From the UHGV virus genome UHGV-0077319: a stretch of DNA of 15,138 bases; one strand, 5' to 3'. The translations under genes were made by a program, and so were the position numbers. This document shows, in pieces, positions 1 through 15,138 of this stretch. Numbering within the stretch: position 1 is the stretch's first letter; every line of letters starts with the position of its first letter. The DNA comes from a virus. The notes under the pieces are model-generated. The model ran no database searches. It saw only the letters and a program-made list of their open reading frames with translations, and was not told the DNA's origin.

Positions 1-1100
1 GGCCATGGAACAGGCACACCAACAGGTAATGCAGAGCCTTCTCCCAAACCAAGGTATGCGAGAAGACCAGCTACATCCTTTCCACTCAAATTAGTCAGCG
101 TATTGTCCAGCGGTTGTTTACCTGCCAGCGCATTAAGCATTGTCGTGGCAAAGTTCGGGTCATTCCCCAGCGCCGCAGCCAGTTCGTTCAGTGTATCCAG
201 TGCAGCAGGTGCAGACCCCACCATTGCCGCAATTGCCGATTTCACAAAAGCCGTGGTGGCAATCTGTGTATTGTTAACCGACTGTGCGGCAGTGGGGGCT
301 GTTGGCGTTCCGGTGAGTGCCGGACTTAACAGCGGCGCTTTCAGTGCCAGCGCATTGTTAATGGTGGTACTGAATTTCGGGTCATTATTAATGGCAGCGG
401 CAATTTCTTTCAGCGTATCCAGTGTGGCTGGCGCACCATTAATAAGGGCCATCAGTGCCGCCTGAACAAACGCGGTGGTCGCAATCTGCGTGGTGTTATT
501 CCCCTCCGCTGGCGTTGGCGCTTTGGGTGTTCCGGTCAATGTCGGGCTTTCTTTGGGGGCATACTGTGAATGCGGGTCCGGTGCGGCAAGATGTTTTGCC
601 ATCTTATCATCCACGAACACCTTCAGCTCCAGTACCTTATCATCCACATACTTGCGGGTTGCCAGCACGACGGCAGGGTCGATTTTCAGGGTGATATTGT
701 CCGTGCTGCTGGTAATCAGCACCATGCGCACGGTCTGGGTGCGCCCGCTGCCTTCAGCCAGTTGCGGCTTATAGCTTTCCGGGCAGTTGCCTACGGCAAT
801 CAATGCCCCGGACTCATCAAACAGACCCACTTCACGTATCCACCAACCACCCTCATTTTCAGGGATCACCTGTTCAGCAATAATCTGGCTGCTGTTCTGC
901 GGGTCGATATAGAGCATATTCAGCGCAGCCCGGCGTTTCTCATTTACCAGTGCCGTCTGCTTTGCGTCCGGCGTCGGCAATGCTCCGCCGCCATCGCCCA
1001 CCGCCATATGGGTAATTTTTAGCGGCACACCGAGCGCGGCGGCGCTGGCAAGTTTCGCCGCGCCAATATCCGTCAGCAGGGTATAAAATTTTGTGCTCAT
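1..1100 (-). CDS. H: tail fibre protein gpH, N-terminal part (3' end lies beyond the window start)
   Basis: Minus-strand ATG at 1100 (reverse complement of cat 1098..1100). My hand translation begins MSTKFYTLLTDIGAAKLA and resembles the P2 gpH N-terminus. No minus-strand stop down to position 1. Overlaps the gpI stop by 4 nt. Confidence 0.8.
   Translation of the reverse strand, partial: MSTKFYTLLTDIGAAKLASAAALGVPLKITHMAVGDGGGALPTPDAKQTALVNEKRRAALNMLYIDPQNSSQIIAEQVIPENEGGWWIREVGLFDESGALIAVGNCPESYKPQLAEGSGRTQTVRMVLITSSTDNITLKIDPAVVLATRKYVDDKVLELKVFVDDKMAKHLAAPDPHSQYAPKESPTLTGTPKAPTPAEGNNTTQIATTAFVQAALMALINGAPATLDTLKEIAAAINNDPKFSTTINNALALKAPLLSPALTGTPTAPTAAQSVNNTQIATTAFVKSAIAAMVGSAPAALDTLNELAAALGNDPNFATTMLNALAGKQPLDNTLTNLSGKDVAGLLAYLGLGEGSALPVGVPVPW
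117..495. repeat. two diverged tandem copies (~220 bp period) inside the tail fibre gene
   Basis: The segment starting near 120 (tgccagcgcatt...gtatccagtg...ggcaatctgtgt) recurs near 340 (tgccagcgcatt...gtatccagtg...cgcaatctgcgtggtgtt), with shared anchors visible by eye. The plus-strand shadow ORF 103..465 shows the same internal repetition. Confidence 0.7.
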
Positions 1101-1702
1101 GGATTCACTCTCATTGTGTCAATAACATGGACCGCCCCGCCTTCATGCGCGGTGCCGCCGGAAATAATTGTTTCGTTGATATACGGATAGATCGTGATTT
1201 CTTCGCCAAGATAACTGGCGGCTCCCACCCAATGCGGACCGCTGGTCTGCAGATTGATGGACATGCCGATCATGTGACGGCTACATGGTTTGGCATCGCT
1301 TATCAGTCGCTCAAGTTCCAGATAGGTATCTTCAGTGATGCCCTGGTCCTGCACACCAATGTCCAGACGAAACGTGCCCGGTGTTTCTCCGGTCTGCCAC
1401 CACTCAATAATGCGGATCAGGAAGCCGAACGGCTCCACCACCCGCCGTACGGCACTGGTGGTTCCTTTGTGCTGATGAATATAAAAAGCATCCTTCACTA
1501 CCTGGCGTTTGACGCTTTCTGTCCAGCCCTCGTCCCAGCGATCCACAGAGAACGCCCAGGCGAGATAAGGCAGGAAACTGACCGGACAGGTTGCCGGATT
1601 CCACAAGTCACGCAGTGACACCTGCAGATCAGAAATCCCGCTACAGGTTTGCGCCAGTCGGCGCTCCAGTGGCGTTGAACCCGGTGGCAGCAGACTATTC
1701 AT
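1097..1702 (-). CDS. I: baseplate assembly protein gpI
   Basis: 201 aa ORF. The motif RDLWNPATCPVSFLPYLAWAFSVDRWDEGW matches the conserved P2 gpI core (ELWNPDTCP...LAWAFSVDRWDE). Confidence 0.85.
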   Translation of the reverse strand: MNSLLPPGSTPLERRLAQTCSGISDLQVSLRDLWNPATCPVSFLPYLAWAFSVDRWDEGWTESVKRQVVKDAFYIHQHKGTTSAVRRVVEPFGFLIRIIEWWQTGETPGTFRLDIGVQDQGITEDTYLELERLISDAKPCSRHMIGMSINLQTSGPHWVGAASYLGEEITIYPYINETIISGGTAHEGGAVHVIDTMRVNP

Positions 1703-2603
1703 CCGTTCCCCCGTTGGTCACGCTCCACTGAGTACATGATGCCGCCTGCGTTTTGTTCAGGACCACATCAGCCAGCGGTGAAGCCAGCTCCACACGTTGA
1801 ACACCCTCAACATGCAGCGCGGCAAAAATAGCACTACGGCGAATATCCCGACCGAGCCGCGTCTGACTGGCGATGTACCTCTGCAGGCTGACTTTTGCTG
1901 CTGCCATTACCGGCTCTGCTTCCGGTCCCGGATAAAGAAAAATGGTAGCTTCCACACGGTACGGGATGATTTCTGCGCTGCGAACCGTCAGACGGTCAGC
2001 CACCGGGCGGACGTTCTCACTGTTCAGGGCTTTCTCCACCACATCCAGCAAGTCTTTTTCTGCTGTTCCGTCGCCTTCACGACTCAGGACAGTCAGTACC
2101 ACCTCTGCAGGTGCCGGACTGGTTGCACTGGCATCCGCCACCCGACCGTCGGCGCTTCGGGCATGAAATTCATAAGCTGCAGTTGGTCCCGCAACTGAAA
2201 GCCCTTCAAAGGCTGCAGGCACACGCAGGCGTAACGCTTCATCGCTTTCCATCACAGCTGCAACGGGCGGCACAGCGTCATTATCAGCAGGCGTCACCGT
2301 CAGGCGTTTCACGTTGTAGTTGGCAGCGAGCTGGTCAAGATCGCCGCCCATCGCGTAAGCCACCATCACCGCCTGCGCGGCTTCGTTAATGCGCTGGCGC
2401 AGAAGCAACTCACGGTAAGCATTCTCCTGCAACAATTTGGTGACGGGTTCAGATTCCAGTTCCAGCGTGCGGATCACTGCTTCCTGCTCATCTTTCGGAT
2501 GAAGCGCCACAAATTCTGCCTTGCGTTCGGCAAGCAGCGTCTCAAAGTCCGGCACATCCACAATCTGCGGTGCAGGCAACTGCGAAAGGTCAATCACTGC
2601 CAT
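1695..2603 (-). CDS. J: baseplate assembly protein gpJ
   Basis: The track ORF 1695..2642 starts at an upstream Met. The P2-like N-terminus MAVIDLSQLPAPQIVDVPDFETLLAERKA begins at the ATG at 2603 (cat 2601..2603). The C-terminus ends ...VTNGGTDE like P2 gpJ. Confidence 0.85.
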   Translation of the reverse strand: MAVIDLSQLPAPQIVDVPDFETLLAERKAEFVALHPKDEQEAVIRTLELESEPVTKLLQENAYRELLLRQRINEAAQAVMVAYAMGGDLDQLAANYNVKRLTVTPADNDAVPPVAAVMESDEALRLRVPAAFEGLSVAGPTAAYEFHARSADGRVADASATSPAPAEVVLTVLSREGDGTAEKDLLDVVEKALNSENVRPVADRLTVRSAEIIPYRVEATIFLYPGPEAEPVMAAAKVSLQRYIASQTRLGRDIRRSAIFAALHVEGVQRVELASPLADVVLNKTQAASCTQWSVTNGGTDE

Positions 2604-2949
2604 TCTCTGCTCCTGTTGATACGGAAAGGGACACAGGCACACCGTTATTCCGCCGCCCGGTCAGCTCCACCACCATAGAACCGTCAAAGTTGCTGTTGAT
2701 GGTGATGGAATCCAGCGTCAGCCGTGGCTCCCAGCGACTCAGCGCCACATACACTGCCGACATGACCTGCAGGCGTAATGCCGGATTTTGTGGCTGGTCT
2801 ATCAGTGCCGACAGCAGGGAACCATATTCACGACGGGCAATGCGGCTACCCTGCGGCGTCAGCAAAATGTCCCGCACCGACTGGCGCAGATGGTCAATAT
2901 CAGTAATGGCTTTACCGCTGGTATTGTTCATCCCGATATAAAGCGTCAT
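2590..2949 (-). CDS. W: baseplate wedge protein gpW
   Basis: 119 aa. GMNNTSGKAITDIDHLRQSVRDILLTPQGSRIARREYGSLL is similar to P2 gpW. Overlaps the gpJ start by 14 nt and gpV by 4 nt. Confidence 0.85.
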   Translation of the reverse strand: MTLYIGMNNTSGKAITDIDHLRQSVRDILLTPQGSRIARREYGSLLSALIDQPQNPALRLQVMSAVYVALSRWEPRLTLDSITINSNFDGSMVVELTGRRNNGVPVSLSVSTGAENGSD

Positions 2950-3524
2950 ACCGGGCCTCCGGTGGTGTCGCCGCCTTTCAGGACGCCAGTATGCTGATGC
3001 GCATCAACCACGATCCCGTTAGAACTCATTGCACCGCCGCCCTGGGTAACGCCACCATTGATCACCACCTCACTGTTAATACGCGTGCGGTCAGCCTCCA
3101 GTACAAACTCACTGGTTTTCAGGGTGATATTGTCAGTGGCCTCAATGACCATAGATTTGATGCCCCTGACATACCAGAGCCCGGTGGCGGGTTCGTATTC
3201 AAACCAGCCACCGTCAGGATGTTCTGTCACGCAGGCGTCCGCCGACGTCGACGGTGGAGCGAACTGATTCGAATAGACAGCGGGCAGCGCAAAGGCAGTT
3301 TCCAGATTACCGCCCAGACTCAGCAGCACCACCTGCTCACCTTCCGATGGTCGCCACCATGTCCGGGCATTTCCTGCACGCAGCGTCAGCCAACTGATCC
3401 AGTTAGTTTCAAGCTCGCCCGTTTTCACTCGGCAAAGCCAGTTTTCCCTGTCCACTTCGGTGACTACCCCAGTGCGGATCAGGTTGGTGATAAGGCGCAT
3501 GATTTCGGTAAGTTGTGCGTTCAT
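2946..3524 (-). CDS. V: baseplate spike/assembly protein gpV
   Basis: 192 aa. MNAQLTEIMRLITNLIRTGVVTEVDRENWLCRVKTG...TWWRPSEGEQ is similar to P2 gpV. This is the first gene of the V-W-J-I-H operon. Confidence 0.85.
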   Translation of the reverse strand: MNAQLTEIMRLITNLIRTGVVTEVDRENWLCRVKTGELETNWISWLTLRAGNARTWWRPSEGEQVVLLSLGGNLETAFALPAVYSNQFAPPSTSADACVTEHPDGGWFEYEPATGLWYVRGIKSMVIEATDNITLKTSEFVLEADRTRINSEVVINGGVTQGGGAMSSNGIVVDAHQHTGVLKGGDTTGGPV

Positions 3525-3611
3525 GGGGCTGATTCTTGCATGCTAAAAGAAATAAGATCTCCTGTTCAAAAATGTATGAACTCCTATACAATGTATTTCC
3601 CATGAAAATTT
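3525..3611. promoter_or_regulatory. divergent control region between gpV (minus) and the moron ORF (plus); contains a TGT-N12-ACA dyad
   Basis: TGTatgaactcctatACA at 3573..3590 fits the TGT-N12-ACA Ogr/Delta activator-site consensus of P2 late promoters. A sigma70-like pair TTCAAA (3565..3570) and TACAAT (3587..3592) with 16 nt spacing reads toward the plus strand. Confidence 0.35.
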
Positions 3612-4214
3612 ATGGAATTGCTAAAAGTGAACGAAGATAATCAACCTGAAAAAGAAACCAATATCTTGAATAAATGGTCACCCAGGGACTTACTTAATCC
3701 TTTTACTGAACTCTTTACAATATTCACATCAAAAAATGATAACGAAGTGGAAAACGCAGCTGAAAATTTTCAGATGCGAATTCAAAAACTAATATTCTTC
3801 ACATTAACTTTACTACTTCTTACGAAAGGTTTTTTTGAAATACTACAAACTCTAACTTTTTTAGAACAACCCCTTATTCTTCATTTCCCACTCTTAAATG
3901 AACCTTTAGTGTTTTATAAAGACCATGGCATTGCTGGTAGCCTTTTAAGAATAAAATCACTAGTATTTGTAGCCAATGCATTAGCTCTTTCATGCGGTTT
4001 TCAGCTGGCATACATGCTTGTAACAAAGGGACCAGATGAAGCCGTAGAACCAATTATGTTGGGTATCGCCTCTGCTATTCTTTTAATTCTTTCTGATAGT
4101 TCTCCTGCAGAATGGGGGCTGGAGAAATCCTTAGCTATATTCTTTTTAATAATAAGCATCCCAATTTTATATTGGTCATCAAGAAAAATGAAAAAAGATA
4201 AAGATAACGAATGA
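3612..4214 (+). CDS. hypothetical polytopic membrane protein (AT-rich moron at the S/V junction)
   Basis: 200 aa ORF on the strand opposite to the late genes, in markedly AT-rich DNA with AT-rich codon usage. At least four hydrophobic helices (LIFFTLTLLLLTKGFF, ALSCGFQLAYMLV, IMLGIASAILLILS, LAIFFLIISIPILYW). No clear SD; the true start could be a downstream Met (for example MRIQKL). Confidence 0.55.
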   Translation: MELLKVNEDNQPEKETNILNKWSPRDLLNPFTELFTIFTSKNDNEVENAAENFQMRIQKLIFFTLTLLLLTKGFFEILQTLTFLEQPLILHFPLLNEPLVFYKDHGIAGSLLRIKSLVFVANALALSCGFQLAYMLVTKGPDEAVEPIMLGIASAILLILSDSSPAEWGLEKSLAIFFLIISIPILYWSSRKMKKDKDNE

Positions 4215-4240
4215 CACATTATTTTTCTTTATAGGTATAT

Positions 4241-4687
4241 TTATCTAAATAGCCAGCACAGAATAGCGTCACGGGTAACTATTTCCACTTCATCACTAAC
4301 GCCTAGTAGTCTACGCTCTGCATAGCGGACCTCCGGTCCTCTTCGACTGACGCGATCACGCAGGCCGTAATGGTGAACACGGGCAATGCGCTGTACCTTG
4401 CCTTCAAACTGCACGCTGGCAGAGTCGGCGCTGGCGGCAGTTTTCAGGTATTTTGTGGTGCGCAGCTTTGTAAACATCTGACGTTTGATGCGCCCCTTTT
4501 TGCTGCGTGCTGTTACCCGTCGCGGCTCATAACTGCTGCCATCTGGATTGCGCTGCATCCTGATGTTCTGCTGCTGTGTCCGGCGCAGTTCCTGCGCCAG
4601 CTGGCGCATCATGCGGCTTCTGGTGGCTGGCTCCAGATTCGCCAGCAAGGCACTCAGCCAGTCGTCCACTTTCTGCAGTTCAGCCAC
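4241..4687 (-). CDS. S: tail completion / virion morphogenesis protein gpS
   Basis: 148 aa ORF in the S position, last gene of the O-to-S operon. Size and position match P2 gpS (about 150 aa). Confidence 0.75.
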   Translation of the reverse strand: MAELQKVDDWLSALLANLEPATRSRMMRQLAQELRRTQQQNIRMQRNPDGSSYEPRRVTARSKKGRIKRQMFTKLRTTKYLKTAASADSASVQFEGKVQRIARVHHYGLRDRVSRRGPEVRYAERRLLGVSDEVEIVTRDAILCWLFR

Positions 4688-5132
4688 GTTTCACCGTCCA
4701 CATTTCTTCAGGTTCATCAGGTTCCGCTATAGCTTCAACGCTCGACACACTGCCGTCAGTGCTGACCAGCACACGCTCCGTCAGTTGCAGGTTCAGGCTG
4801 ATATCACAGACATCGTTGCGCAGAATATCCACCTCAAAGGTGAATAGCTTTTCCCGTAACGCCGGGTTATTGATGGCATCGGGCTGGTTATCACGCAGCC
4901 ACAGCAAAACCGGGGCCATCAACAGATTCTGGTCACCACTGAAATCCTCTATCACCACGTTCAGGGTGTAGCGGTACTCCCATGACATGGAGCTGGCCCC
5001 CGTGGCAACCAGCGAACCGTTATCCACAAACAGATGCAGTTTGTCCGGGTTATTACGGACATAAGGCACTGCTTTATTAATGGCGTGGCGCAGGGATTGT
5101 GGTTTGTTCACTATTTCGCTCCTGACACGCAA
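4680..5132 (-). CDS. R: tail completion protein gpR
   Basis: 150 aa. NPDKLHLFVDNGSL...RYTLNVVIEDFSGDQNLLMAPVLLWLRDNQPD parallels P2 gpR (NPDMLRIFVDNGSI...RYTLNVIVTDFTGD...VPVLAWLRENQPD). Confidence 0.8.
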   Translation of the reverse strand: MRVRSEIVNKPQSLRHAINKAVPYVRNNPDKLHLFVDNGSLVATGASSMSWEYRYTLNVVIEDFSGDQNLLMAPVLLWLRDNQPDAINNPALREKLFTFEVDILRNDVCDISLNLQLTERVLVSTDGSVSSVEAIAEPDEPEEMWTVKRG

Positions 5133-5364
5133 TAATCATGTCCACTTTGTCGGCACAGACCGCCCAGGCGGCCTCCGTTTCATCCAGCAACGCGTTCAGA
5201 TCACCGTTAGTGCGCGGCGCTGCCTGATCCAGTCGACACGGCGTCACCCGCGGACAACCACTGACGGTAAGCTGCACCTCCGGTAAATGCCGGACGTTTC
5301 CGCAGCCGGATAATGTCAGCAGGCAAAGGAGTATCAGCCCAGCGGCGTAAATCCTCGTTCTCAC
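5077..5364 (-). CDS. lysC: LysC-like o-spanin (outer-membrane lipoprotein), out of frame within and beyond lysB
   Basis: 95 aa with a signal peptide and lipobox (LILLCLLTLSGC). It starts inside the lysB frame and extends past the lysB stop, the embedded/overlapped spanin architecture of Rz/Rz1 and P2 lysB/lysC. The exact start is uncertain. Confidence 0.55.
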   Translation of the reverse strand: MRTRIYAAGLILLCLLTLSGCGNVRHLPEVQLTVSGCPRVTPCRLDQAAPRTNGDLNALLDETEAAWAVCADKVDMIIACQERNSEQTTIPAPRH

Positions 5365-6926: not shown

Positions 6927-7390
6927 CAGATAAGCTCCACTGTGCAGTGCGGCGCATCCTGTACCCGGCTGATGGCCCAGCGGGCGTCACGCCACAAATC
7001 ACCGCTTGCTTCCGCCTGTTCCTCGCCCCGCTTCACACCGGACGCCGTGGCGTCATAGTCCTGATAACGCTCATTGAGCATGGCGCGTGCCCAGCAGTAA
7101 ACCGCGTTGAAATAGTGATGAATGCGCTCACTTTTGCCGTCCAGCTGTTCCGCCGGAACCTCAGCCAGCGACGCATACCCCAGCATCTGCTGACGTCTGC
7201 GAAACTCATACAGCTCTGCGTTGACCTCCGAAATTGCCGACAGCGCAACCTGCTTTAAACGCGGCTGCGTCACCGTGCCGTCAGTGCGCATGACACTGCG
7301 AAACTCCGACAAGTCCACATCAGGCCAGAACGGCGTATTTCTGATGATTTCCGCCTGTTCCGGTACCTGTTCTGGCGCAACAAACTTCAT
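6926..7390 (-). CDS. L: head completion/stabilisation protein gpL
   Basis: The track ORF extends to 7453. The ATG at 7390 (MKFVAPEQ...) is preceded by AGGAGA on the minus strand (reverse complement of tctcct 7398..7403) and gives a P2 gpL-sized product. IIRNTPFWPDVDLSEFRSVMRTDGTVT is similar to P2 gpL. Confidence 0.8.
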   Translation of the reverse strand: MKFVAPEQVPEQAEIIRNTPFWPDVDLSEFRSVMRTDGTVTQPRLKQVALSAISEVNAELYEFRRRQQMLGYASLAEVPAEQLDGKSERIHHYFNAVYCWARAMLNERYQDYDATASGVKRGEEQAEASGDLWRDARWAISRVQDAPHCTVELI

Positions 7391-7485
7391 GCTGCTTTCT
7401 CCTGAAATAAAGGGCGGTGGACGGGGTTTTGATGTGGCTGTGCCTTTCGCCACCCCGTGCCGCCCGTGCGCGGGGGCACGTTCTG

Positions 7486-8136
7486 TCAGCGGCTGTCATT
7501 GCGCAGTCTGCGCTCCAGCTGCTGTTTGTCTTTTTTCACGCCACAGCGGGGATCGAGCTGTAACGCATGGTTGAGATGATTAAGGGCGGAAGCCGGATTG
7601 CTTTCACTCAGGACAGCGCCAATCGCTTTATGCAGACGCGCCCGTGACTGGTCTGGCATATCCAGACCGTCTGTCAGCTCCAGCGTCTGCAGCAACAGAT
7701 CGGCATCAAAGCCGGTGGCGGCAAGCATTGCGCTCTGCGCTGCATCTGCCATTTCCTCTGCCAGCACGGTCTGCACGTTGCGGTTACCCAGCGGCATCAC
7801 CCAGCCATGACGCAGGGCATGACGCCCAATATCCAGCGCCCCGGCATAATCTCCGGCATCAATGCGCCACAGCATCACGTACATCAGCACGTCATCCTGT
7901 TGAGCGCCTCCGGCAGCCAGGACGCCCTCCGCCCAGGCGGCATATTTCGGCAGCAGCTCCACCTTGATTTCCGCTTTTTTCACCGTGGACTGAACGCCCT
8001 TGAGACGGCGGCGGTCTTCCGCCAGTTGCAGCAGCATCAGGTCATAGCCCGACGCGTGGCGAACACTGCCGCCCTCACGGGCGGCCTGTTCAGCCTGAAC
8101 GCGCAGGCGATGCTGCCGTGCGGGACTCAGGCTCAT
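7486..8136 (-). CDS. M: terminase small (endonuclease) subunit gpM
   Basis: 216 aa. LPKYAAWAEGVL...GGAQQDDVLMYVMLWRIDAGDYAGALDIGRHALRHG is similar to P2 gpM. Sits between N and L. Confidence 0.85.
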   Translation of the reverse strand: MSLSPARQHRLRVQAEQAAREGGSVRHASGYDLMLLQLAEDRRRLKGVQSTVKKAEIKVELLPKYAAWAEGVLAAGGAQQDDVLMYVMLWRIDAGDYAGALDIGRHALRHGWVMPLGNRNVQTVLAEEMADAAQSAMLAATGFDADLLLQTLELTDGLDMPDQSRARLHKAIGAVLSESNPASALNHLNHALQLDPRCGVKKDKQQLERRLRNDSR

Positions 8137-8139
8137 GGT

Positions 8140-9195
8140 TTATGCTCCGGCTTCTACGGCGACGCTGAAGTCGCCAATCTGGATGTTTTCCACCAGTGCT
8201 GCGCAGCGGTAGTCCTCAACCACATAGGCTTCGTTAACGGATTCAAAGTTTTCAATCCGGTCACGTTTCGGGTTGTCGATAACTGAACGGCGGCGGGTGT
8301 CTTCCTGCCAGTAGATGGACAGGTTATCCAGACGGGTGATCAGCAGCGCATTCGGCGGGAAGAACGGCGCACGCACGGCCTGCAGGCCACCCATGCGTTT
8401 CTGGCTGATGATCATATCGGCAGCCAGTTTTTCACTGTTTTCCTGCTCTTTGTTGACCAGCGGGAAATACTTATCAGACAACAGTTCACGACCGCAAATC
8501 ACCACCAGATCGTCATCGTCCTGGTAGACCACGTCGATAAGCTCATTAACGGCATCCATCACCACGGCGTCCAGATTGGCATATTCGCCACCTTTGCCGA
8601 CTTTCACTGCACCCGGTGTGGTTTCACCGCCCGTGGTGCTGCTGCCCATGACGTGATCCGGTGCATCCTCACGAATTTTCTGCAGCCAGCCTTTATTCAC
8701 ATCCTGCAGCAGCGGGTTTTCGCTACGGTTGGAGGTTTTCGCACGCTTCACGCCGTTAAAGCCGATCATGATGCGGTCCAGTGCCTGACGTTTCACGATG
8801 GCGTCACGGATACGCACCTGGAAATCCTGAAACTTCGCCCACAGGTCCAGCTTCGCGTAGGTCAGCACCGTGTCAAAGTTGGTCTGCTCGCATTTATATT
8901 CCACATCGACCATCAGCGTCGGATCGACAGGTTCACGCTCTTTCGCGGTGGTGTCAGTGGTTCCGGCAATGGTGCTGCCAACACCCAGCCCCAGCAGCTG
9001 ACCGGACTGCTCAGTCACTGGCGTGACGTTAATCAGCGTCAGGAAAGCGGTGGACTGCTGGATCTGGTCTTCCAGCGTCTGCTGCACAGACGGCTCCACA
9101 GTGAATTTGCTGGACAGTTCTTCAACTGCCACACCGTTCAGACGCGCCAGCTGCTGCAGGTAAGCGTTAAAAGCAAAGCGGGTATTCTTCTTCAT
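8140..9195 (-). CDS. N: major capsid protein gpN
   Basis: 351 aa. N-terminus TRFAFNAYLQQLARLNGVAVEELSSKFTVEPSVQQTL is closely similar to P2 gpN. Confidence 0.9.
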   Translation of the reverse strand: MKKNTRFAFNAYLQQLARLNGVAVEELSSKFTVEPSVQQTLEDQIQQSTAFLTLINVTPVTEQSGQLLGLGVGSTIAGTTDTTAKEREPVDPTLMVDVEYKCEQTNFDTVLTYAKLDLWAKFQDFQVRIRDAIVKRQALDRIMIGFNGVKRAKTSNRSENPLLQDVNKGWLQKIREDAPDHVMGSSTTGGETTPGAVKVGKGGEYANLDAVVMDAVNELIDVVYQDDDDLVVICGRELLSDKYFPLVNKEQENSEKLAADMIISQKRMGGLQAVRAPFFPPNALLITRLDNLSIYWQEDTRRRSVIDNPKRDRIENFESVNEAYVVEDYRCAALVENIQIGDFSVAVEAGA

Positions 9196-9211
9196 CGGGT
9201 TTTGTGCTCCA

Positions 9212-10045
9212 TCAGCAATTGGTCAGAGTGTCAGCGGGGGTGTTACCGCCTGTTGCACGCTGGCGGTAGTCCTGGCGGCTGTCTTCTTGACTCAGCTTGT
9301 CCACCAGTTCGTTAAAGGCGGTCTGCTGTGCCTGCAGGGCAGTCTCCAGCTCAGACAGGCGTTCTTCCTGCTCAGACAGGGATTTTTCGGTGCGTGCGCT
9401 CAGGTTTTGCTGCTCAGTGGCGACCAGCTCCACGGCCTTATGCACATCAGAGAACCGGGCGTCATCGGACTGCTCTTTTTTGGTAAACAGCGCCGTGACA
9501 CGGGCAAACAGGGACGGTTTGTCATCCTGGATTTCTTCCAGTTCGATCACCGTTTCCTCTGCAGCGGTAAAGAGATTGGCAGGATTCTGCTTGCGGTTTG
9601 CCAGTGGGTTATGGGCTGCACTGGCGCTGAATGTCAGCATTTCAGTGCCCAGACTGGCAGGGTCATCAGTGGCAGCCAGGCCGACCAGGTAGGCTTTGCC
9701 CGTATCAGCGAACTTCGGGCTGACTTCCATAGAGGTGAATAATTTCTGGCCTTTTTTCACCAGTTCCACCAGGGACTCCGTTGGCTCAACGTCGGCATAC
9801 AGCGCCATCTTGCCTGCCAGCGGACCTTCCGTGATTTCTTCAGCAAACAGCGCCGTCACCTTGCCGTAGCGGTTAAAGGTGCTGTCCGGCAGATAAGACT
9901 TGATGTGCTCAAGGTTAATCAGCGCGGTATACACCGCCGGGTTGTAGCTGGCTGCCATCTGTTCCAGCCATTCACGCTGGATTTCGCGTCCGTCGGTGGT
10001 GGCACCTTCCACCCCGATGCGAAAACGCTTTGCTTTCACTGTCAT
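9212..10045 (-). CDS. O: capsid scaffolding protein gpO
   Basis: 277 aa. N-terminus MTVKAKRFRIGVEGATTDGREI is similar to P2 gpO. Acidic coiled-coil C-terminal half. First gene of the leftward late operon. Confidence 0.9.
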   Translation of the reverse strand: MTVKAKRFRIGVEGATTDGREIQREWLEQMAASYNPAVYTALINLEHIKSYLPDSTFNRYGKVTALFAEEITEGPLAGKMALYADVEPTESLVELVKKGQKLFTSMEVSPKFADTGKAYLVGLAATDDPASLGTEMLTFSASAAHNPLANRKQNPANLFTAAEETVIELEEIQDDKPSLFARVTALFTKKEQSDDARFSDVHKAVELVATEQQNLSARTEKSLSEQEERLSELETALQAQQTAFNELVDKLSQEDSRQDYRQRATGGNTPADTLTNC

Positions 10046-10187
10046 GAGCCGTGCTCCGTTAGAAAAAACTTACTGGAGCCTTATGGTTGCGGTGATGGGG
10101 GCAGTGAAACAATGCGCGGTATTTGTACCGACAACCACACAAACCGCAGGCGGGGAAAGCCTTCATTCAAGGCTGTAGGTTTGTGCC
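10046..10187. promoter_or_regulatory. divergent late promoter region (PO / PP equivalent) with a TGT-N12-ACA activator-site dyad
   Basis: 142 bp between divergent gpO (minus) and gpP (plus). TGTaccgacaaccacACA at 10124..10141 fits the Ogr/Delta binding consensus. Its centre lies about 55 bp upstream of a transcription start that would leave a ~30 nt leader for gpO. Confidence 0.5.
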
Positions 10188-11954
10188 ATGAACACCACAC
10201 TGACACCCGCAGATCTCGATCCCCGTCGGCAGGCCATGCTGCTGTACTTTCAGGGATACCGCGTAGCCCGCATTGCTGAAATGCTGGGCGAGAAAGTTGC
10301 AACCGTTCACAGCTGGAAAAAACGCGACAAGTGGGGTGACTATGGGCCGCTGGATCAGATGCAGCTCACCACCGCCGCACGCTACTGCCAGCTCATTATG
10401 AAGGAGCACAAAGAAGGGAAAGATTTCAAAGAGATTGACCTGCTGGCGCGCCAGTCGGAGCGCCATGCGCGGATCGGCAAGTTTAACAATGGCGGCAACG
10501 AAGCCGACTTAAACCCTAACGTCGCCAACCGCAACAAAGGCCCGCGCCGTCAGCCGGAAAAGAACGTTTTCACCGATGAACAGATTGAGAAGCTGGAAGA
10601 AATCTTCCATTCCTCCATGTTCAACTACCAGCGCCACTGGTGGGAAGCCGGAAAAACCAACCGCATCCGCAACCTGCTGAAGTCACGCCAGATCGGCGCG
10701 ACCTTCTATTTTGCCCGTGAAGCCCTGATTGACGCCCTGCTAACCGGGCGTAACCAGATTTTCCTTTCCGCCAGCAAGGCACAGGCCCACGTCTTTAAGC
10801 AGTACATCATCGACTTCGCCAAAGAAGTGGAGGTGGAGCTGAAAGGCGATCCGATAGTGCTTCCTAACGGGGCCACGCTGTACTTCCTCGGCACCAATGC
10901 CCGCACGGCCCAGAGTTACCACGGCAACCTGTATCTGGATGAATATTTCTGGATACCGAAATTCCAGGAGCTGCGCAAAGTGGCTTCCGGTATGGCTATT
11001 CACAAAAAATGGCGACAAACCTATTTTTCCACGCCATCCAGCCTGACACACAGTGCTTATCCGTTCTGGTCCGGTGCGCTGTTCAACCGTGGGCGCAACA
11101 AAGCCGACAAGGTGGACATCGACCTGTCCCACAGCAATCTGGCCCCCGGCCTGCTGTGCGCAGACGGGCAATACCGCCAGATAGTCACCGTGGAAGATGC
11201 GGTGCGCGGCGGCTGTAACCTGTTCGACCTCGACCAGCTACGCATGGAGTACAGCCCGGACGAATACCAGAACCTGCTGATGTGCGAGTTCGTGGACGAT
11301 CTCGCGTCCGTGTTCCCGCTTAGCGAACTGCAGACGTGCATGGTGGACAGTTGGGAAGTCTGGACCGACTTTCATGCACTGGCCCTGCGCCCGTTTGGCT
11401 GGCGCGAGGTGTGGATCGGTTATGACCCGGCAAAAGGTACGCAGAACGGCGACAGTGCCGGATGCGTGGTGGTGGCTCCGCCAGCCGTGCCGGGCGGTAA
11501 GTTCCGTATTCTTGAGCGTCACCAGTGGCGCGGGATGGACTTCCGCGCCCAGGCTGATGCAATCAAAAAACTGACCGAGCAGTACAACGTGACCTATATC
11601 GGCATTGACTCGACAGGCGTCGGTCACGGGGTTTATGAGAACGTGAAAGCGTTCTTTCCTGCCGTCCGGGAGTTTGTCTACAACCCCAACGTTAAAAACG
11701 CTCTGGTACTCAAGGCCTACGACATTATCAGTCACCGTCGTCTGGAGTTTGACGCCGGACACACCGACATTGCGCAGTCATTCATGGCAATCCGTCGCGC
11801 AACCACCGCCAGCGGCAACCGCCCGACCTATGAAGCCAGCCGCAGCGAAGAAGCCAGCCACGCCGATCTGGCCTGGGCAACAATGCACGCACTGTTTAAC
11901 GAACCGCTGCAGGGCGAATCCGCCAATACCAGCAATATTGTGGAGATTTTTTGA
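10188..11954 (+). CDS. P: terminase large (ATPase) subunit gpP
   Basis: 588 aa. N-terminus PRRQAMLLYFQGYRVARIAEMLGEKVATVHSWKKRD is similar to P2 gpP. Stop overlaps the Q start (ATGA). Confidence 0.9.
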   Translation: MNTTLTPADLDPRRQAMLLYFQGYRVARIAEMLGEKVATVHSWKKRDKWGDYGPLDQMQLTTAARYCQLIMKEHKEGKDFKEIDLLARQSERHARIGKFNNGGNEADLNPNVANRNKGPRRQPEKNVFTDEQIEKLEEIFHSSMFNYQRHWWEAGKTNRIRNLLKSRQIGATFYFAREALIDALLTGRNQIFLSASKAQAHVFKQYIIDFAKEVEVELKGDPIVLPNGATLYFLGTNARTAQSYHGNLYLDEYFWIPKFQELRKVASGMAIHKKWRQTYFSTPSSLTHSAYPFWSGALFNRGRNKADKVDIDLSHSNLAPGLLCADGQYRQIVTVEDAVRGGCNLFDLDQLRMEYSPDEYQNLLMCEFVDDLASVFPLSELQTCMVDSWEVWTDFHALALRPFGWREVWIGYDPAKGTQNGDSAGCVVVAPPAVPGGKFRILERHQWRGMDFRAQADAIKKLTEQYNVTYIGIDSTGVGHGVYENVKAFFPAVREFVYNPNVKNALVLKAYDIISHRRLEFDAGHTDIAQSFMAIRRATTASGNRPTYEASRSEEASHADLAWATMHALFNEPLQGESANTSNIVEIF

Positions 11955-12979
11955 TGGGAAAGAGTAAGAAGAACCGCGCTGCGGCGACGAAACAGCTCCA
12001 GCTTAAAAACCAGACTACAGCCGAAGCATTCAGCTTCGGCGATCCCGTTCCTGTTCTGGACCGCCGAGAACTGCTGGACTATGTGGAATGCGTACAGATG
12101 GACCGTTGGTATGAGCCGCCCGTCAGCTTTGACGGACTGGCGCGCACCTTCCGCGCTGCCGTGCATCACAGTTCCCCGATTGCAGTAAAGTGCAACATTC
12201 TGACCAGTACCTATATCCCTCATCCGCTGCTCAGCCAGCAGGCTTTTTCGCGTTTTGTGCAGGACTATCTGGTATTTGGTAACGCCTACCTGGAGAAACG
12301 CACAAACCGATTCGGTGAAGTTATCGCTCTTGAGCCTGCGCTGGCAAAATACACCCGACGCGGATTAGACCTGGATACCTACTGGTTTGTGCAATACGGT
12401 ATGACAACCCAGCCGTATCAGTTCACGAAAGGCAGCATTTTTCATCTGATGGAACCGGACATCAACCAGGAGATCTACGGCCTGCCCGGCTATCTTTCTG
12501 CCATTCCGTCAGCCCTACTCAACGAGTCCGCCACGCTGTTCCGTCGCAAGTATTACATTAACGGCAGCCATGCGGGCTTTATCATGTACATGACCGATGC
12601 CGCGCAAAACCAGGAGGATGTGAACAACCTCCGCAACGCGATGAAAAGCGCCAAAGGTCCAGGCAACTTCCGCAACCTGTTTATGTACTCGCCTAACGGC
12701 AAAAAGGACGGGCTTCAGATCATCCCATTGTCAGAAGTCGCGGCGAAGGATGAATTTCTTAATATCAAGAACGTGAGTCGGGATGACATGATGGCAGCGC
12801 ACCGCGTGCCGCCTCAGATGATGGGGATTATGCCTAATAATGTTGGGGGGTTTGGGGATGTGGAGAAAGCAAGTAAAGTGTTTGTACGAAACGAACTTAT
12901 ACCATTACAAAAACGCTTAGGAGAGATAAATGAATGGCTTGATAAAAAAATAATAGAATTTGAAATATATTCACTCTGA
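11951..12979 (+). CDS. Q: portal (capsid vertex) protein gpQ
   Basis: 342 aa in the position downstream of and overlapping P, as in the P2 P-Q operon. The last ~30 codons fall in AT-rich sequence, which suggests the island junction lies at the gene's 3' end. Confidence 0.85.
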   Translation: MMGKSKKNRAAATKQLQLKNQTTAEAFSFGDPVPVLDRRELLDYVECVQMDRWYEPPVSFDGLARTFRAAVHHSSPIAVKCNILTSTYIPHPLLSQQAFSRFVQDYLVFGNAYLEKRTNRFGEVIALEPALAKYTRRGLDLDTYWFVQYGMTTQPYQFTKGSIFHLMEPDINQEIYGLPGYLSAIPSALLNESATLFRRKYYINGSHAGFIMYMTDAAQNQEDVNNLRNAMKSAKGPGNFRNLFMYSPNGKKDGLQIIPLSEVAAKDEFLNIKNVSRDDMMAAHRVPPQMMGIMPNNVGGFGDVEKASKVFVRNELIPLQKRLGEINEWLDKKIIEFEIYSL

Positions 12980-13026
12980 TACATTTACATCACTTAATAG
13001 GACATCCATCGCTCAACACATAATAA

Positions 13027-13056
13027 GAAAAAAAACTACGGCACTACCGTGCCGTA
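13027..13056 (-). terminator. rho-independent terminator for the minus-strand cargo operon (possibly weakly bidirectional)
   Basis: Perfect 7 bp stem acggcac (13038..13044) / gtgccgt (13049..13055) with a 4 nt loop. On the minus strand the hairpin is followed by a U8 tract (A-run 13028..13035 on the plus strand). Lies directly after the last cargo gene. Confidence 0.6.
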
Positions 13057-13064
13057 ACAAATTA

Positions 13065-13559
13065 TCACTTTAAGAATTTTTTCTGATAAGACTCATCAAT
13101 TAGAGATTTAATTATTTTCGCCCTTTTTGACACTAATACACTAATTCTTGTCCTTTGACTTTTATCATACTCCTGTGCTTTTTCAATATTAGATGTAGCA
13201 TCTTTGAATAAATCAGCAATCAAAGGTTTATAGTCACCTTCGATATTAATGCGTTGTTTTAGATGATTCAACCACCGCTCGGTCTCCGCAAGAAGTGCTG
13301 TTATCTCATTTTGAAATGACATTGCATCAATTTCTTTTGAATCTCCCGGTATCCAAAACTTTCTTGATGCAGATTCAATTTCCTTTAAATTATCTGAAAC
13401 ATTTTTTACAATTGACCATGTTTCACTCCTCTTTTGCAACGCACGGGAGTTTCTATATACAAAAACCCAACCAATCAAGGCTGTTAGAATTGCAATCACA
13501 CCTGAACTAGCAAGGTATTGTAATAACCGCAGATAAACCGGAAGTTCATCCATGAACAT
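13065..13559 (-). CDS. cargo gene C: single-pass membrane protein with coiled-coil-like soluble domain (hypothetical; candidate effector)
   Basis: AT-rich ORF. Candidate starts are GTG 13562, ATG 13559 (overlapping the gene B stop as TGATG) and ATG 13553 (GGAG 8 nt upstream). N-terminal hydrophobic helix LLQYLASSGVIAILTALIGWVFVY, then a charged helical region. The terminator follows. Confidence 0.6.
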   Translation of the reverse strand: MFMDELPVYLRLLQYLASSGVIAILTALIGWVFVYRNSRALQKRSETWSIVKNVSDNLKEIESASRKFWIPGDSKEIDAMSFQNEITALLAETERWLNHLKQRINIEGDYKPLIADLFKDATSNIEKAQEYDKSQRTRISVLVSKRAKIIKSLIDESYQKKFLK

Positions 13560-13879
13560 CACTCCTTTTTAGCATCAGAAATATATCCCCATATACTATC
13601 CTTGAGGAAATCCAAATCAGTAAATATTTTTAATTTTTTCCTAATTATAGCTTTATCTATATTATTTGTTCTATAAAGTCCACCAAACGCCTCTTCCAAG
13701 AATGAAGAACCATAACCCATAGCACCATCAAGGTACACGTGCACCTCATCATAATCTTGGATGGCTTTCAAAAGATACTTTTCACGGAAACGTTGTCCAT
13801 TATCAGGACCATCCTCATCATAGCGGCCATAGGGAACATCTGAAAAATCTTCAGCAACATGTATCTCTTTGATTTTCAT
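13559..13879 (-). CDS. cargo gene B: small acidic protein, STAS-like (anti-sigma-antagonist-like) by motif; hypothetical
   Basis: 106 aa. ATG at 13879 overlaps the gene A stop (ATGA). VHVYLDGAMGYGSSFLEEAFGGL resembles the strand-Ser-helix core of STAS/SpoIIAA-like domains. The assignment is from motif memory only. Confidence 0.55.
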   Translation of the reverse strand: MKIKEIHVAEDFSDVPYGRYDEDGPDNGQRFREKYLLKAIQDYDEVHVYLDGAMGYGSSFLEEAFGGLYRTNNIDKAIIRKKLKIFTDLDFLKDSIWGYISDAKKE

Positions 13880-14943
13880 TCAGCACCTCTCAAACTTACA
13901 TTCCATTGAATAAGGGTTCCACCTATGGAGTATGGCAGATCAAATTTATCTTCAACATTATTTTCAGCATCATAAGAATATCGTCCCATTCCACTAAAAA
14001 TATGTAACTGCCCCTCAGGGTTATCTACAACATACCTTTTCATATCAGGTAATCCTTTACCATGCTTCTGACTATTCATTCTTGTCTCACCATACTGTAC
14101 AGCCGCGAATATTTTATCAGAATCCGTCTTAGGATTAAATATCTGAGCGATAAATGTGAAAAAGTCTTTTTTAACCAATGTAACTGGGATACCTTCTCCC
14201 ATATCATACACCATCAAAAATAGTTGTTCTTCGACTTTGTGTGCCAATATCCACCATCTTTTACCAATGTCCTCAATAAATTCAGAGAACTGTTCTTCAT
14301 TTGAATACGCATGTAGACCAACATTGCTAATAGATTCAGTTAATGCTGCATATAATTTCACACCATCCGAAGCGGAAATCTTACCTTCATAAATGGTATC
14401 TTTTATATAACGTAGAATATTTTTAATTTTTTGTCTTGCTTCGGCACTTTCATGATCATCTCTAGTTTTGCCTGCAACAGCGGAAACAATTTCCATTGAA
14501 TTAAGCTTATCTGCAGCTATACGCTGAAACCCTGTAATCCCCCAAATACCACATATTTTAAACCAGTTATTTGCCCTGGGTGAACCGCACGTAGTAATAG
14601 AAATTATATTTTTATCTTTTGTTTGCCTTTGTAAAAAGTCAATATGTGCATACAATACGATTACTGCACATGCTTTCAGAGATTTTGTATTTCTGAAATC
14701 TATTAAAATTTTCTCACCATCATTGATGTAATCTCTGATTAAAGTGATAAACTCTATAAATAGTTTGTAATTTTTAGTATTAAATAAGTCCAATGACGCA
14801 GGCGCGGGTATTCTCACACGAGAGAATACCCGCATGGGCTGTAGCATCCGTCTTCCACCAGAAAGCTTTCTTGACTCCCGCTTCGCAATCTTCCTTGCTC
14901 TGATCAAAGAATGTTCAATTTGTTCTTCAGTTAGCCGCTTCAT
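13876..14943 (-). CDS. cargo gene A: protein with an N-terminal domain of unknown function and a C-terminal GHKL (histidine-kinase-like) ATPase domain
   Basis: The track ORF starts at 14988, but the ATG at 14943 (MKRLTEEQ) has GAGG 7 nt upstream. Bergerat-fold motifs appear in the canonical order: N-box ESISNVGLHA, G1 box YDMGEGIP (DxGxG), G2 box HGKGLPD (GxGL). The N-terminal ~200 residues are unrecognised. Confidence 0.65.
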   Translation of the reverse strand: MKRLTEEQIEHSLIRARKIAKRESRKLSGGRRMLQPMRVFSRVRIPAPASLDLFNTKNYKLFIEFITLIRDYINDGEKILIDFRNTKSLKACAVIVLYAHIDFLQRQTKDKNIISITTCGSPRANNWFKICGIWGITGFQRIAADKLNSMEIVSAVAGKTRDDHESAEARQKIKNILRYIKDTIYEGKISASDGVKLYAALTESISNVGLHAYSNEEQFSEFIEDIGKRWWILAHKVEEQLFLMVYDMGEGIPVTLVKKDFFTFIAQIFNPKTDSDKIFAAVQYGETRMNSQKHGKGLPDMKRYVVDNPEGQLHIFSGMGRYSYDAENNVEDKFDLPYSIGGTLIQWNVSLRGAE

Positions 14944-15138
14944 ATCCTTTCCTCGATAGTTGTTGAAGCTTATCAGTTCACGCAACAACTACAAACATCT
15001 ACCTGCTATCTTAAAGCAACAATTTGAAAGAACATTGAAAATCATAGTATCTGTTTGTAAACAAACGACTGTTTCTATACCTTGCGCGCGCTCGTATCCC
15101 CGCCACGCCTGCCCGCTTTATGTAGTGGTTTTCATGCA

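Follow-up and report, generated by a model that had tools for sequence, protein, structure and literature searches.

A probable VapK/CapK-type kinase heads a three-gene cassette with a membrane protein in the cargo slot of a P2-like prophage

The window analysed here is the whole 15,138-nucleotide (nt) stretch of the virus genome UHGV-0077319, a P2-like E. coli prophage with terminase, portal, capsid, lysis and tail genes; all positions are those of the window. On its minus strand lies a cassette of three genes, the first of which (gene 1, read from 14943 to 13876) encodes a protein of 355 residues plus stop. A first-pass annotation had described this open reading frame (ORF) as a GHKL ATPase preceded by a large unrecognised domain, and the ORF is present at 13876-14943, on the minus strand, together with every motif string that was quoted for it: ESISNVGLHA at residues 203-212 (nt 14308-14337), YDMGEGIP at residues 246-253 (nt 14185-14208), HGKGLPD at residues 294-300 (nt 14044-14064) and the Cys/Trp segment CGSPRANNWFKICGIWGITGF at residues 119-139 (nt 14527-14589). 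The sequence GAGGAAAGGA is found at 14954-14945, just upstream of the ATG at 14943; an alternative TTG start at 14988, which would make a protein of 370 residues, received no support. An identical coding sequence is present in E. coli D3, where RefSeq lists it as WP_042005405.1 and labels the product a hypothetical protein.

Gene 2 (13559-13879, minus strand) encodes a DUF4325 STAS-like protein of 106 residues and gene 3 (13065-13553, minus strand) a single-pass membrane protein of 162 residues that is a candidate effector. The stop codon of gene 1 overlaps the start codon of gene 2 (ATGA), 5 nt separate gene 2 from gene 3, and an intrinsic terminator on the minus strand (13058-13035), consisting of a 10-bp stem with five GC pairs followed by a T-run, closes the operon 7 nt past the gene-3 stop. 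Kinase, DUF4325 and membrane protein genes form a translationally coupled three-gene operon.

The C-terminal half of the gene-1 protein (residues ~190-352, nt 13888-14376) is a GHKL (Bergerat-fold) kinase domain. In an alignment of 20 family members, reaching down to 24% identity, E203, N207, H211, D247, G249, G295, G297, G342 and T343 are invariant, and the elements that define the N box (E203/N207), G1 (D247-x-G249-x-G251), G2 (G295-x-G297) and G3 (G342-T343; nt 13903-13923) are invariant or nearly so. The AlphaFold model of the protein (predicted local distance difference test, pLDDT, 80) shows a Bergerat alpha/beta sandwich in this half, which a fold search matched to the SpoIIAB/RsbW kinases, with SpoIIAB as the best GHKL match (aligned over 127 of 141 residues); the N box follows the pattern E-x3-N-x3-H-A-Y, likewise of the RsbW type. 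Comparison of the protein or its profile with PDB sequences gave sub-threshold matches to RsbW (E 0.3, at the N box) and to SpoIIAA (E 0.5, residues 74-152), which were taken as leads and then confirmed by the fold search. When the relatives were compared with Pfam at E<=0.01, 8 of 20 matched HATPase_c and 5 of 20 matched the RsbW/SpoIIAB-type model HATPase_c_2, the best E being 4.8e-5. Neither of the two outcomes that the first-pass annotation had named as refuting its GHKL call was seen. The Pfam score of the window protein itself is given below, and we assign the domain to the GHKL superfamily because the motifs are invariant, the fold matches and profile-profile comparison agrees.

An exhaustive profile search recovered 4007 representatives of the gene-1 family with E<=1e-3, of which 1377 reach E<=1e-30, these counts being of cluster representatives after 50% clustering. 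Nearly all are ~350 residues long and were matched over their full length, and the family is a large and conserved two-domain one. In PHROGs gene 1 falls into phrog_3364, a family of unknown function, and no model in PADLOC (2023) or NCBIfam matches any of the three cassette proteins. The broad kinship first suggested for gene 1, which ranged over histidine kinases, RsbW/SpoIIAB, MORC and Hsp90, narrows to the RsbW/SpoIIAB type. A reading as a sensor histidine kinase was rejected: there is no HisKA-type Pfam match in gene 1 or in 20 relatives, the region upstream of the GHKL domain has a STAS fold, and the RefSeq annotation of E. coli D3 contains no response regulator in the operon or its flanks. 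The gene-1 product is best called an anti-sigma or CapK/VapK-type Ser protein kinase rather than a generic ATPase; its kinase activity is predicted, and that it belongs to the VapK/CapK class of STAS-GHKL Ser kinases is very probable.

The first-pass annotation had found nothing recognisable in the N-terminal ~200 residues. On the AlphaFold model and the fold search, however, residues ~35-160 (nt 14464-14841) match STAS anti-sigma antagonists of the SpoIIAA/RsbV type, and the front domain of the kinase is therefore a STAS domain. Within it IDFRNTKSLKACAVIVL forms the beta3-alpha2 element, Ala91 occupies the position of the SpoIIAA phospho-Ser in a manual alignment, and the Cys/Trp segment corresponds to the alpha3 region and includes the invariant Gly132. 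Ahead of the STAS domain, residues 1-34 (nt 14842-14943) are, by composition and pLDDT, a Lys/Arg-rich helix followed by a disordered linker. The very basic character noticed earlier is real, with 14 K/R against 4 D/E in the first 45 residues; the helix at 6-26 has a pLDDT of 75-80, the value falls below 50 at residues 25-33, and the basic helix is missing from some of the aligned family members.

The product of gene 2 matches Pfam DUF4325 with an E of 3.5e-12. Among 26 sequences of such gene-2 proteins P16, R19, G24, G28, S59, F60, E63, F65 and G67 are invariant, and the protein carries an invariant N-terminal motif, P-x-G-R...D-G...G-x2-F-R. Ser59 (codon 13703-13705) aligns in the gene-2 profile with S48 of VapS, the phospho-site of a characterised relative discussed below, and is the predicted phospho-acceptor of what would be the substrate of the gene-1 kinase. 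A match of gene-2 residues 17-82 to T7-family portal proteins (phmmer, E 0.3), centred on YG-S-[FY]-[IL]-EE-x-[FL]-G-x-L, was weak and was judged to be due to chance.

The gene-3 protein begins with a transmembrane (TM) helix, its single membrane pass, and continues into a four-helix bundle that is confidently predicted (pLDDT 88.6). The positive-inside rule places this bundle in the cytoplasm and leaves a periplasmic stub of ~14 residues. Neither Pfam nor the structure reveals a PIN domain in this protein.

Literature searches on STAS domains or partner switching in phage defence returned nothing; it was a weak but near-full-length match of the DUF4325 profile to PDB 9z7o, 'Escherichia VapS', that led to VapKSC, a three-gene operon encoding the STAS-GHKL kinase VapK, the STAS antitoxin VapS and the PIN toxin VapC (Chambers et al., EMBO J 2026, PMC13373217). 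In that system, which protects against phage Bas42, VapK is proposed to phosphorylate VapS on S48 and thereby to release VapC; protection is abolished by VapS S48A, by a VapC-dead mutant and by VapK F54A, the toxin is released by VapS S48E, and inhibition of VapC requires the C-terminal helix of VapS, residues 94-116 (PMC13373217). Using sequences from the source data of that study, we find that the gene-1 family aligns with VapK over 256 columns, colinearly through both STAS and GHKL domains (hhalign 93.8%, E 1.8e-7), and that the gene-1 family hidden Markov model (HMM) scores VapK at 19.8 bits. The two kinases have in common a lid signature before G2, A-x-Q-x-G-x-T ... R/H-G-x-G-L. VapS itself belongs to Pfam DUF4325 (E 2.7e-17), the family of gene 2, and the order of the three genes and a mobile, phage-associated context are further points of likeness. 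The systems differ in several respects. Identity over the hhalign alignment with VapK is low (22%), and the ~34-residue basic N-terminal helix of gene 1 is absent from VapK; gene 2 lacks the C-terminal inhibitory helix of VapS and has the extra N-terminal motif; and the third gene encodes a membrane four-helix-bundle protein, whereas that of VapKSC encodes a PIN nuclease.

CapK, a kinase of HTH-STAS-GHKL (HTH, helix-turn-helix) architecture, is switched on by single-stranded DNA (ssDNA) and phosphorylates a conserved Ser of CapS, a repressor combining STAS and winged HTH (wHTH) domains, the pair governing the transcription of immune operons, CBASS and Bub among them (PMC13373217). The likeness here lies in the succession of a STAS-GHKL kinase and a STAS protein with a conserved phospho-Ser, and in related GHKL domains, to which the similarity between the gene-1 family and CapK is confined (hhalign 74%, E 2.7e-5). 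The cassette kinase has no HTH and carries the basic helix where CapK has one; gene 2 lacks a CapS-like wHTH; and there is no downstream immune operon, the terminator following directly after gene 3. Structurally, both halves of gene 1 are matched best by SpoIIAB/SpoIIAA and RsbW/RsbV, modules that share with the cassette the RsbW-type N box and a STAS partner, in the cassette a putative substrate, with Ser at the N-terminus of helix alpha2. They differ from it in that gene 1 fuses kinase and STAS domain in a single chain, in that the partner is DUF4325 rather than a canonical STAS family, and in that the third component is a membrane protein.

In CapK, ssDNA is predicted to lie in the groove between STAS and GHKL domains (AlphaFold 3, supported by a W68A mutant; PMC13373217). 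Of the ssDNA-contacting CapK residues, K237-G-K239-R align with I226-G-K228-R229 of gene 1, where they overlap the motif GKRWW (residues 227-231, nt 14251-14265). W231 is invariant and W230 nearly so, and these two residues might be a family-specific nucleic-acid contact that replaces CapK W68 and VapK F54; the alignment suggests that the nucleic-acid groove may be kept in gene 1 in another form. The first-pass proposal that the N-terminal region is a sensor or nucleic-acid-binding module agrees with what is known of the relatives, ssDNA being the activator of CapK.

To gauge how constant the cassette is we drew on 22 loci from one-genome-per-species contigs, distributed over Gamma-, Beta- and Alphaproteobacteria, Verrucomicrobia and Planctomycetes, and on 49 viral contigs; 67 of these loci are not cut by a contig end and could be assessed. 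In all 67 the kinase gene is followed directly by the DUF4325 gene, and a third gene is always present. An iterative HMM search places this third gene in the same family in 66 of the 67 loci, and in the remaining one it has the same architecture of TM helix plus helical region. Among 150 neighbouring ORFs of the 22 genomic loci Phage_integrase is the commonest family, and there are a few portal, transposase and SmpB genes. At the locus of Pseudomonas sp. UYIF39 (6964-10772) the cassette is followed by opposite-strand ORFs of 349 and 586 residues and then by an ORF of 306 residues, an arrangement that mirrors P2 Q-P-O, and 2 of the 150 neighbouring ORFs match Phage_portal; Pseudomonas P2-like prophages may thus carry the cassette in the same hotspot.

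Within the phage collection, Marinobacter phage AS1 (MK088078.1) is the only isolated phage with a homologue of the cassette. Its genes AS1_41, AS1_40 and AS1_39 (2899-5277) correspond to the three cassette genes and follow, directly downstream, the CI-repressor gene AS1_42 (Phage_CI_repr, E 1.4e-7), divergent from a cro-like gene. The rexAB genes of lambda occupy such a cI-adjacent position, and the rexAB-like placement in AS1 implies that the cassette is expressed in the lysogen.

In the window the left edge of the cargo slot is formed by the P2-type portal gene Q (11951-12979, plus strand), which matches Pfam Phage_portal (E 4.5e-17) and is annotated in RefSeq as phage portal protein. On the other side of the cassette a 57-bp stretch (15082-15138), with GGCGTGGCGGGG on the minus strand, has matches of 96.6-100% in Fels-2 and in Klebsiella, Yersinia and E. 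coli P2-like phages. The GGCGTGGCGGGG is like the cos sequence of P2, and the stretch is probably the cos region that bounds the cargo slot. The gene order in E. coli D3 is Q, cassette, cos-like sequence, DinI, gpA. The cassette is found in 20 of 5426 complete E. coli genomes and its flanks in 1249, and its GC content is ~35% against ~55% in the flanking phage genes.

The cos-proximal interval between gpQ and gpA is the defence hotspot defined by Rousset et al. (2022, PMC9122126). Their Table S5B lists a system #61, 'DUF4325', with 68 occurrences, whose protein 1 is identical to the gene-1 ORF and whose protein 2 is identical to gene 2 from residue 3, and their Table S1B lists a homologous three-gene system from the P4 hotspot, #69, 'HATPase_c | DUF4325' (PMC9122126). 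System #61 shares with the window cassette its type of locus between gpQ and gpA, and is a bare table entry that gives no mechanism and recognises neither the STAS-kinase nor the VapKSC link. Its representative carries another form of the third gene: in other P2 prophages the identical kinase is paired with a different gene-3 protein of 215 residues (MEPNYNYHYMM...; Table S5B #61, protein 3). The version in the P4 hotspot differs again. These three forms make up a single divergent family, a pattern suggesting that gene 3 diversifies rapidly or is swapped. The cassette looks like a membrane-effector variant of the recently described kinase-STAS immune module, one that had been catalogued before without a mechanism being proposed. 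Neither the membrane-protein variant nor DUF4325 is mentioned in PMC13373217 or in the accessible text of a 2026 preprint on the P2/P4 hotspots.

The same prophage has a second variable slot (3529-4235), between the baseplate/tail block and a virion-morphogenesis gene (4241-4687, minus strand). It holds an ORF of 200 residues (3612-4214, plus strand) with no Pfam or PADLOC match, whereas in E. coli D3 this slot is occupied by a TIR-domain protein, and the best-ranked E. coli matches to window positions 1-4300 end at 3528. In E. coli NCTC11121 and NCTC9966 the match to the equivalent of window positions 12900-15138 is split by an IS1A transposase, and in these strains IS1 has disrupted the cassette or its flank.

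Our overall explanation, which draws on analogy with VapKSC, is that a VapK/CapK-type kinase heads a phosphorylation-triggered abortive-infection cassette in the P2 hotspot (probability about 0.6). That the cassette serves as an anti-phage or abortive-infection module of some kind is probable. As long as the lysogen is uninfected, the DUF4325 protein would be unphosphorylated and would keep the cytoplasmic four-helix bundle of gene 3 inactive. A signal derived from infection would switch the kinase on; as with CapK, ssDNA or damage to DNA may be what is sensed, the trigger here being uncertain. The kinase would then phosphorylate the invariant Ser59 of the DUF4325 protein, which would let go of its partner, and the membrane protein, a presumed toxin, would halt growth or permeabilise the membrane and so abort the infection. 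This particular wiring, in which gene 2 restrains gene 3 until the kinase phosphorylates Ser59 and frees the membrane protein, is put forward tentatively, and we would not give it an even chance. It is similarly conceivable, although we lean slightly against it, that the cassette represents a distinct and very widespread branch of the CapK/VapK group with new single-pass membrane effectors, residing mainly in temperate phages and integrative elements. The gene-1 family has at least 1377 clusters (50% identity, E<=1e-30), against the 289 vapKSC and 443 capKS loci reported (PMC13373217). In such a branch the signal may differ from that of CapK and VapK and may be read through the basic N-terminal helix peculiar to the family and the invariant K-R-W-W motif.

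Several observations weigh against the explanation as an abortive-infection cassette. The window protein scores 19 bits against Pfam HATPase_c (E=0.002), under the gathering score of 26.4, and it is because of this shortfall that gene 1 is annotated as hypothetical. Where VapK has F54, which is proposed to stack on ssDNA, gene 1 has Ser88, in a column that contains S, A, I, N, R, D, K or E and is non-aromatic in 20 of 20 family members, so the trigger may differ. Gene 2 ends where VapS residues 94-116 would begin, and no phosphatase gene accompanies the cassette. The fold search with gene 3 returned generic helical bundles, with neither a functional lead nor a recognisable toxic domain, and this protein could be an anchor or sensor and not an effector. 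Known defence genes are sparse among the 150 neighbouring ORFs of the 22 genomic loci (Pfam, PADLOC), and an argument from defence islands for the chromosomal copies was dropped, as their context is one of mobile elements with few known defence genes. Systems #61 and #69 are absent from the set that Rousset et al. tested, and the accessible part of the 2026 hotspot preprint does not include the cassette.

Some of these observations would fit a reversed logic, akin to superinfection exclusion, in which gene 3 is a sensor or anchor that responds to phage DNA entry or to perturbation of the envelope and activates the kinase, the output being the DUF4325 protein once phosphorylated, or some other substrate of the kinase, with no membrane toxin involved. 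Several of the generic bundles matched by gene 3 are sensor domains of histidine kinases and chemoreceptors, and both the lost stacking residue of VapK and the missing inhibitory tail of VapS are compatible with such a scheme. However, with its bundle in the cytoplasm and a stub of ~14 residues in the periplasm gene 3 offers little surface for sensing the outside, the third gene of VapKSC, the sole characterised relative, is a toxin, and effectors with a single TM helix are frequent in defence systems (Rousset et al., 2022, PMC9122126); we regard this arrangement as unlikely. A classical partner switch, with the kinase as anti-sigma factor or anti-regulator and the DUF4325 protein as its antagonist, would place the cassette in the transcriptional control of host or phage genes, those for lysogeny or the stress response for instance, and not in immunity. 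The closest solved folds, SpoIIAB/RsbW and SpoIIAA/RsbV, belong to such switches, and the related CapK/CapS pair is a transcriptional regulator. CapS, however, has a wHTH, and Pfam finds no DNA-binding domain in gene 1 or gene 2; the prophage region and the genes neighbouring the 22 loci contain neither a sigma-factor target nor a PP2C phosphatase gene; and the invariant partner is a membrane protein in a cassette that travels as mobile cargo in unrelated genomes, all of which makes a partner switch quite improbable.

The same biochemistry could also have been selected for maintenance of the prophage, the cassette then being an addiction or stabilisation module of toxin-antitoxin type, or else a non-defence moron. 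Its architecture resembles that of toxin-antitoxin systems, in about one P2 hotspot in four the cargo is not for defence, partition systems being an example (Rousset et al., 2022, PMC9122126), and the scarcity of known defence genes near the chromosomal copies points the same way. Against this, the cassette is found as well in the P4 hotspot and, in AS1, at the rex-like position adjacent to cI, and VapKSC protects against Bas42; we consider it a poor prospect. Least probable, and in our estimate very remote, is that gene 1 is a GHKL ATPase without kinase function, of the MORC, Hsp90 or topoisomerase type, which would act on DNA or proteins by dimerising in an ATP-driven manner. The extent of the SpoIIAB match, the RsbW-type N box, the lack of a transducer domain in gene 1, the obligate STAS partner with its invariant Ser at the phospho-site and the homology of the family to VapK all speak for a kinase, and a MORC/Hsp90 reading was rejected on these grounds.

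If the explanation of the cassette as a kinase-triggered abortive-infection module is correct, a membrane protein would join the transcription switch of CapKS and the nuclease toxin of VapKSC as a third output of the pairing of a STAS-GHKL kinase with a STAS substrate, and the membrane-protein branch would probably outnumber the other two. It would not amount to a new principle; what it would explain is a large unannotated family in a well-known phage defence hotspot. A 'hypothetical protein' of E. coli, Klebsiella, Enterobacter, Serratia and Pseudomonas prophages would receive a functional assignment, and one entry in the catalogue of the P2/P4 hotspots would be filled in. At the same time a phospho-switch mechanism would be assigned to DUF4325 as well as to a large family of single-pass membrane proteins that has no name.

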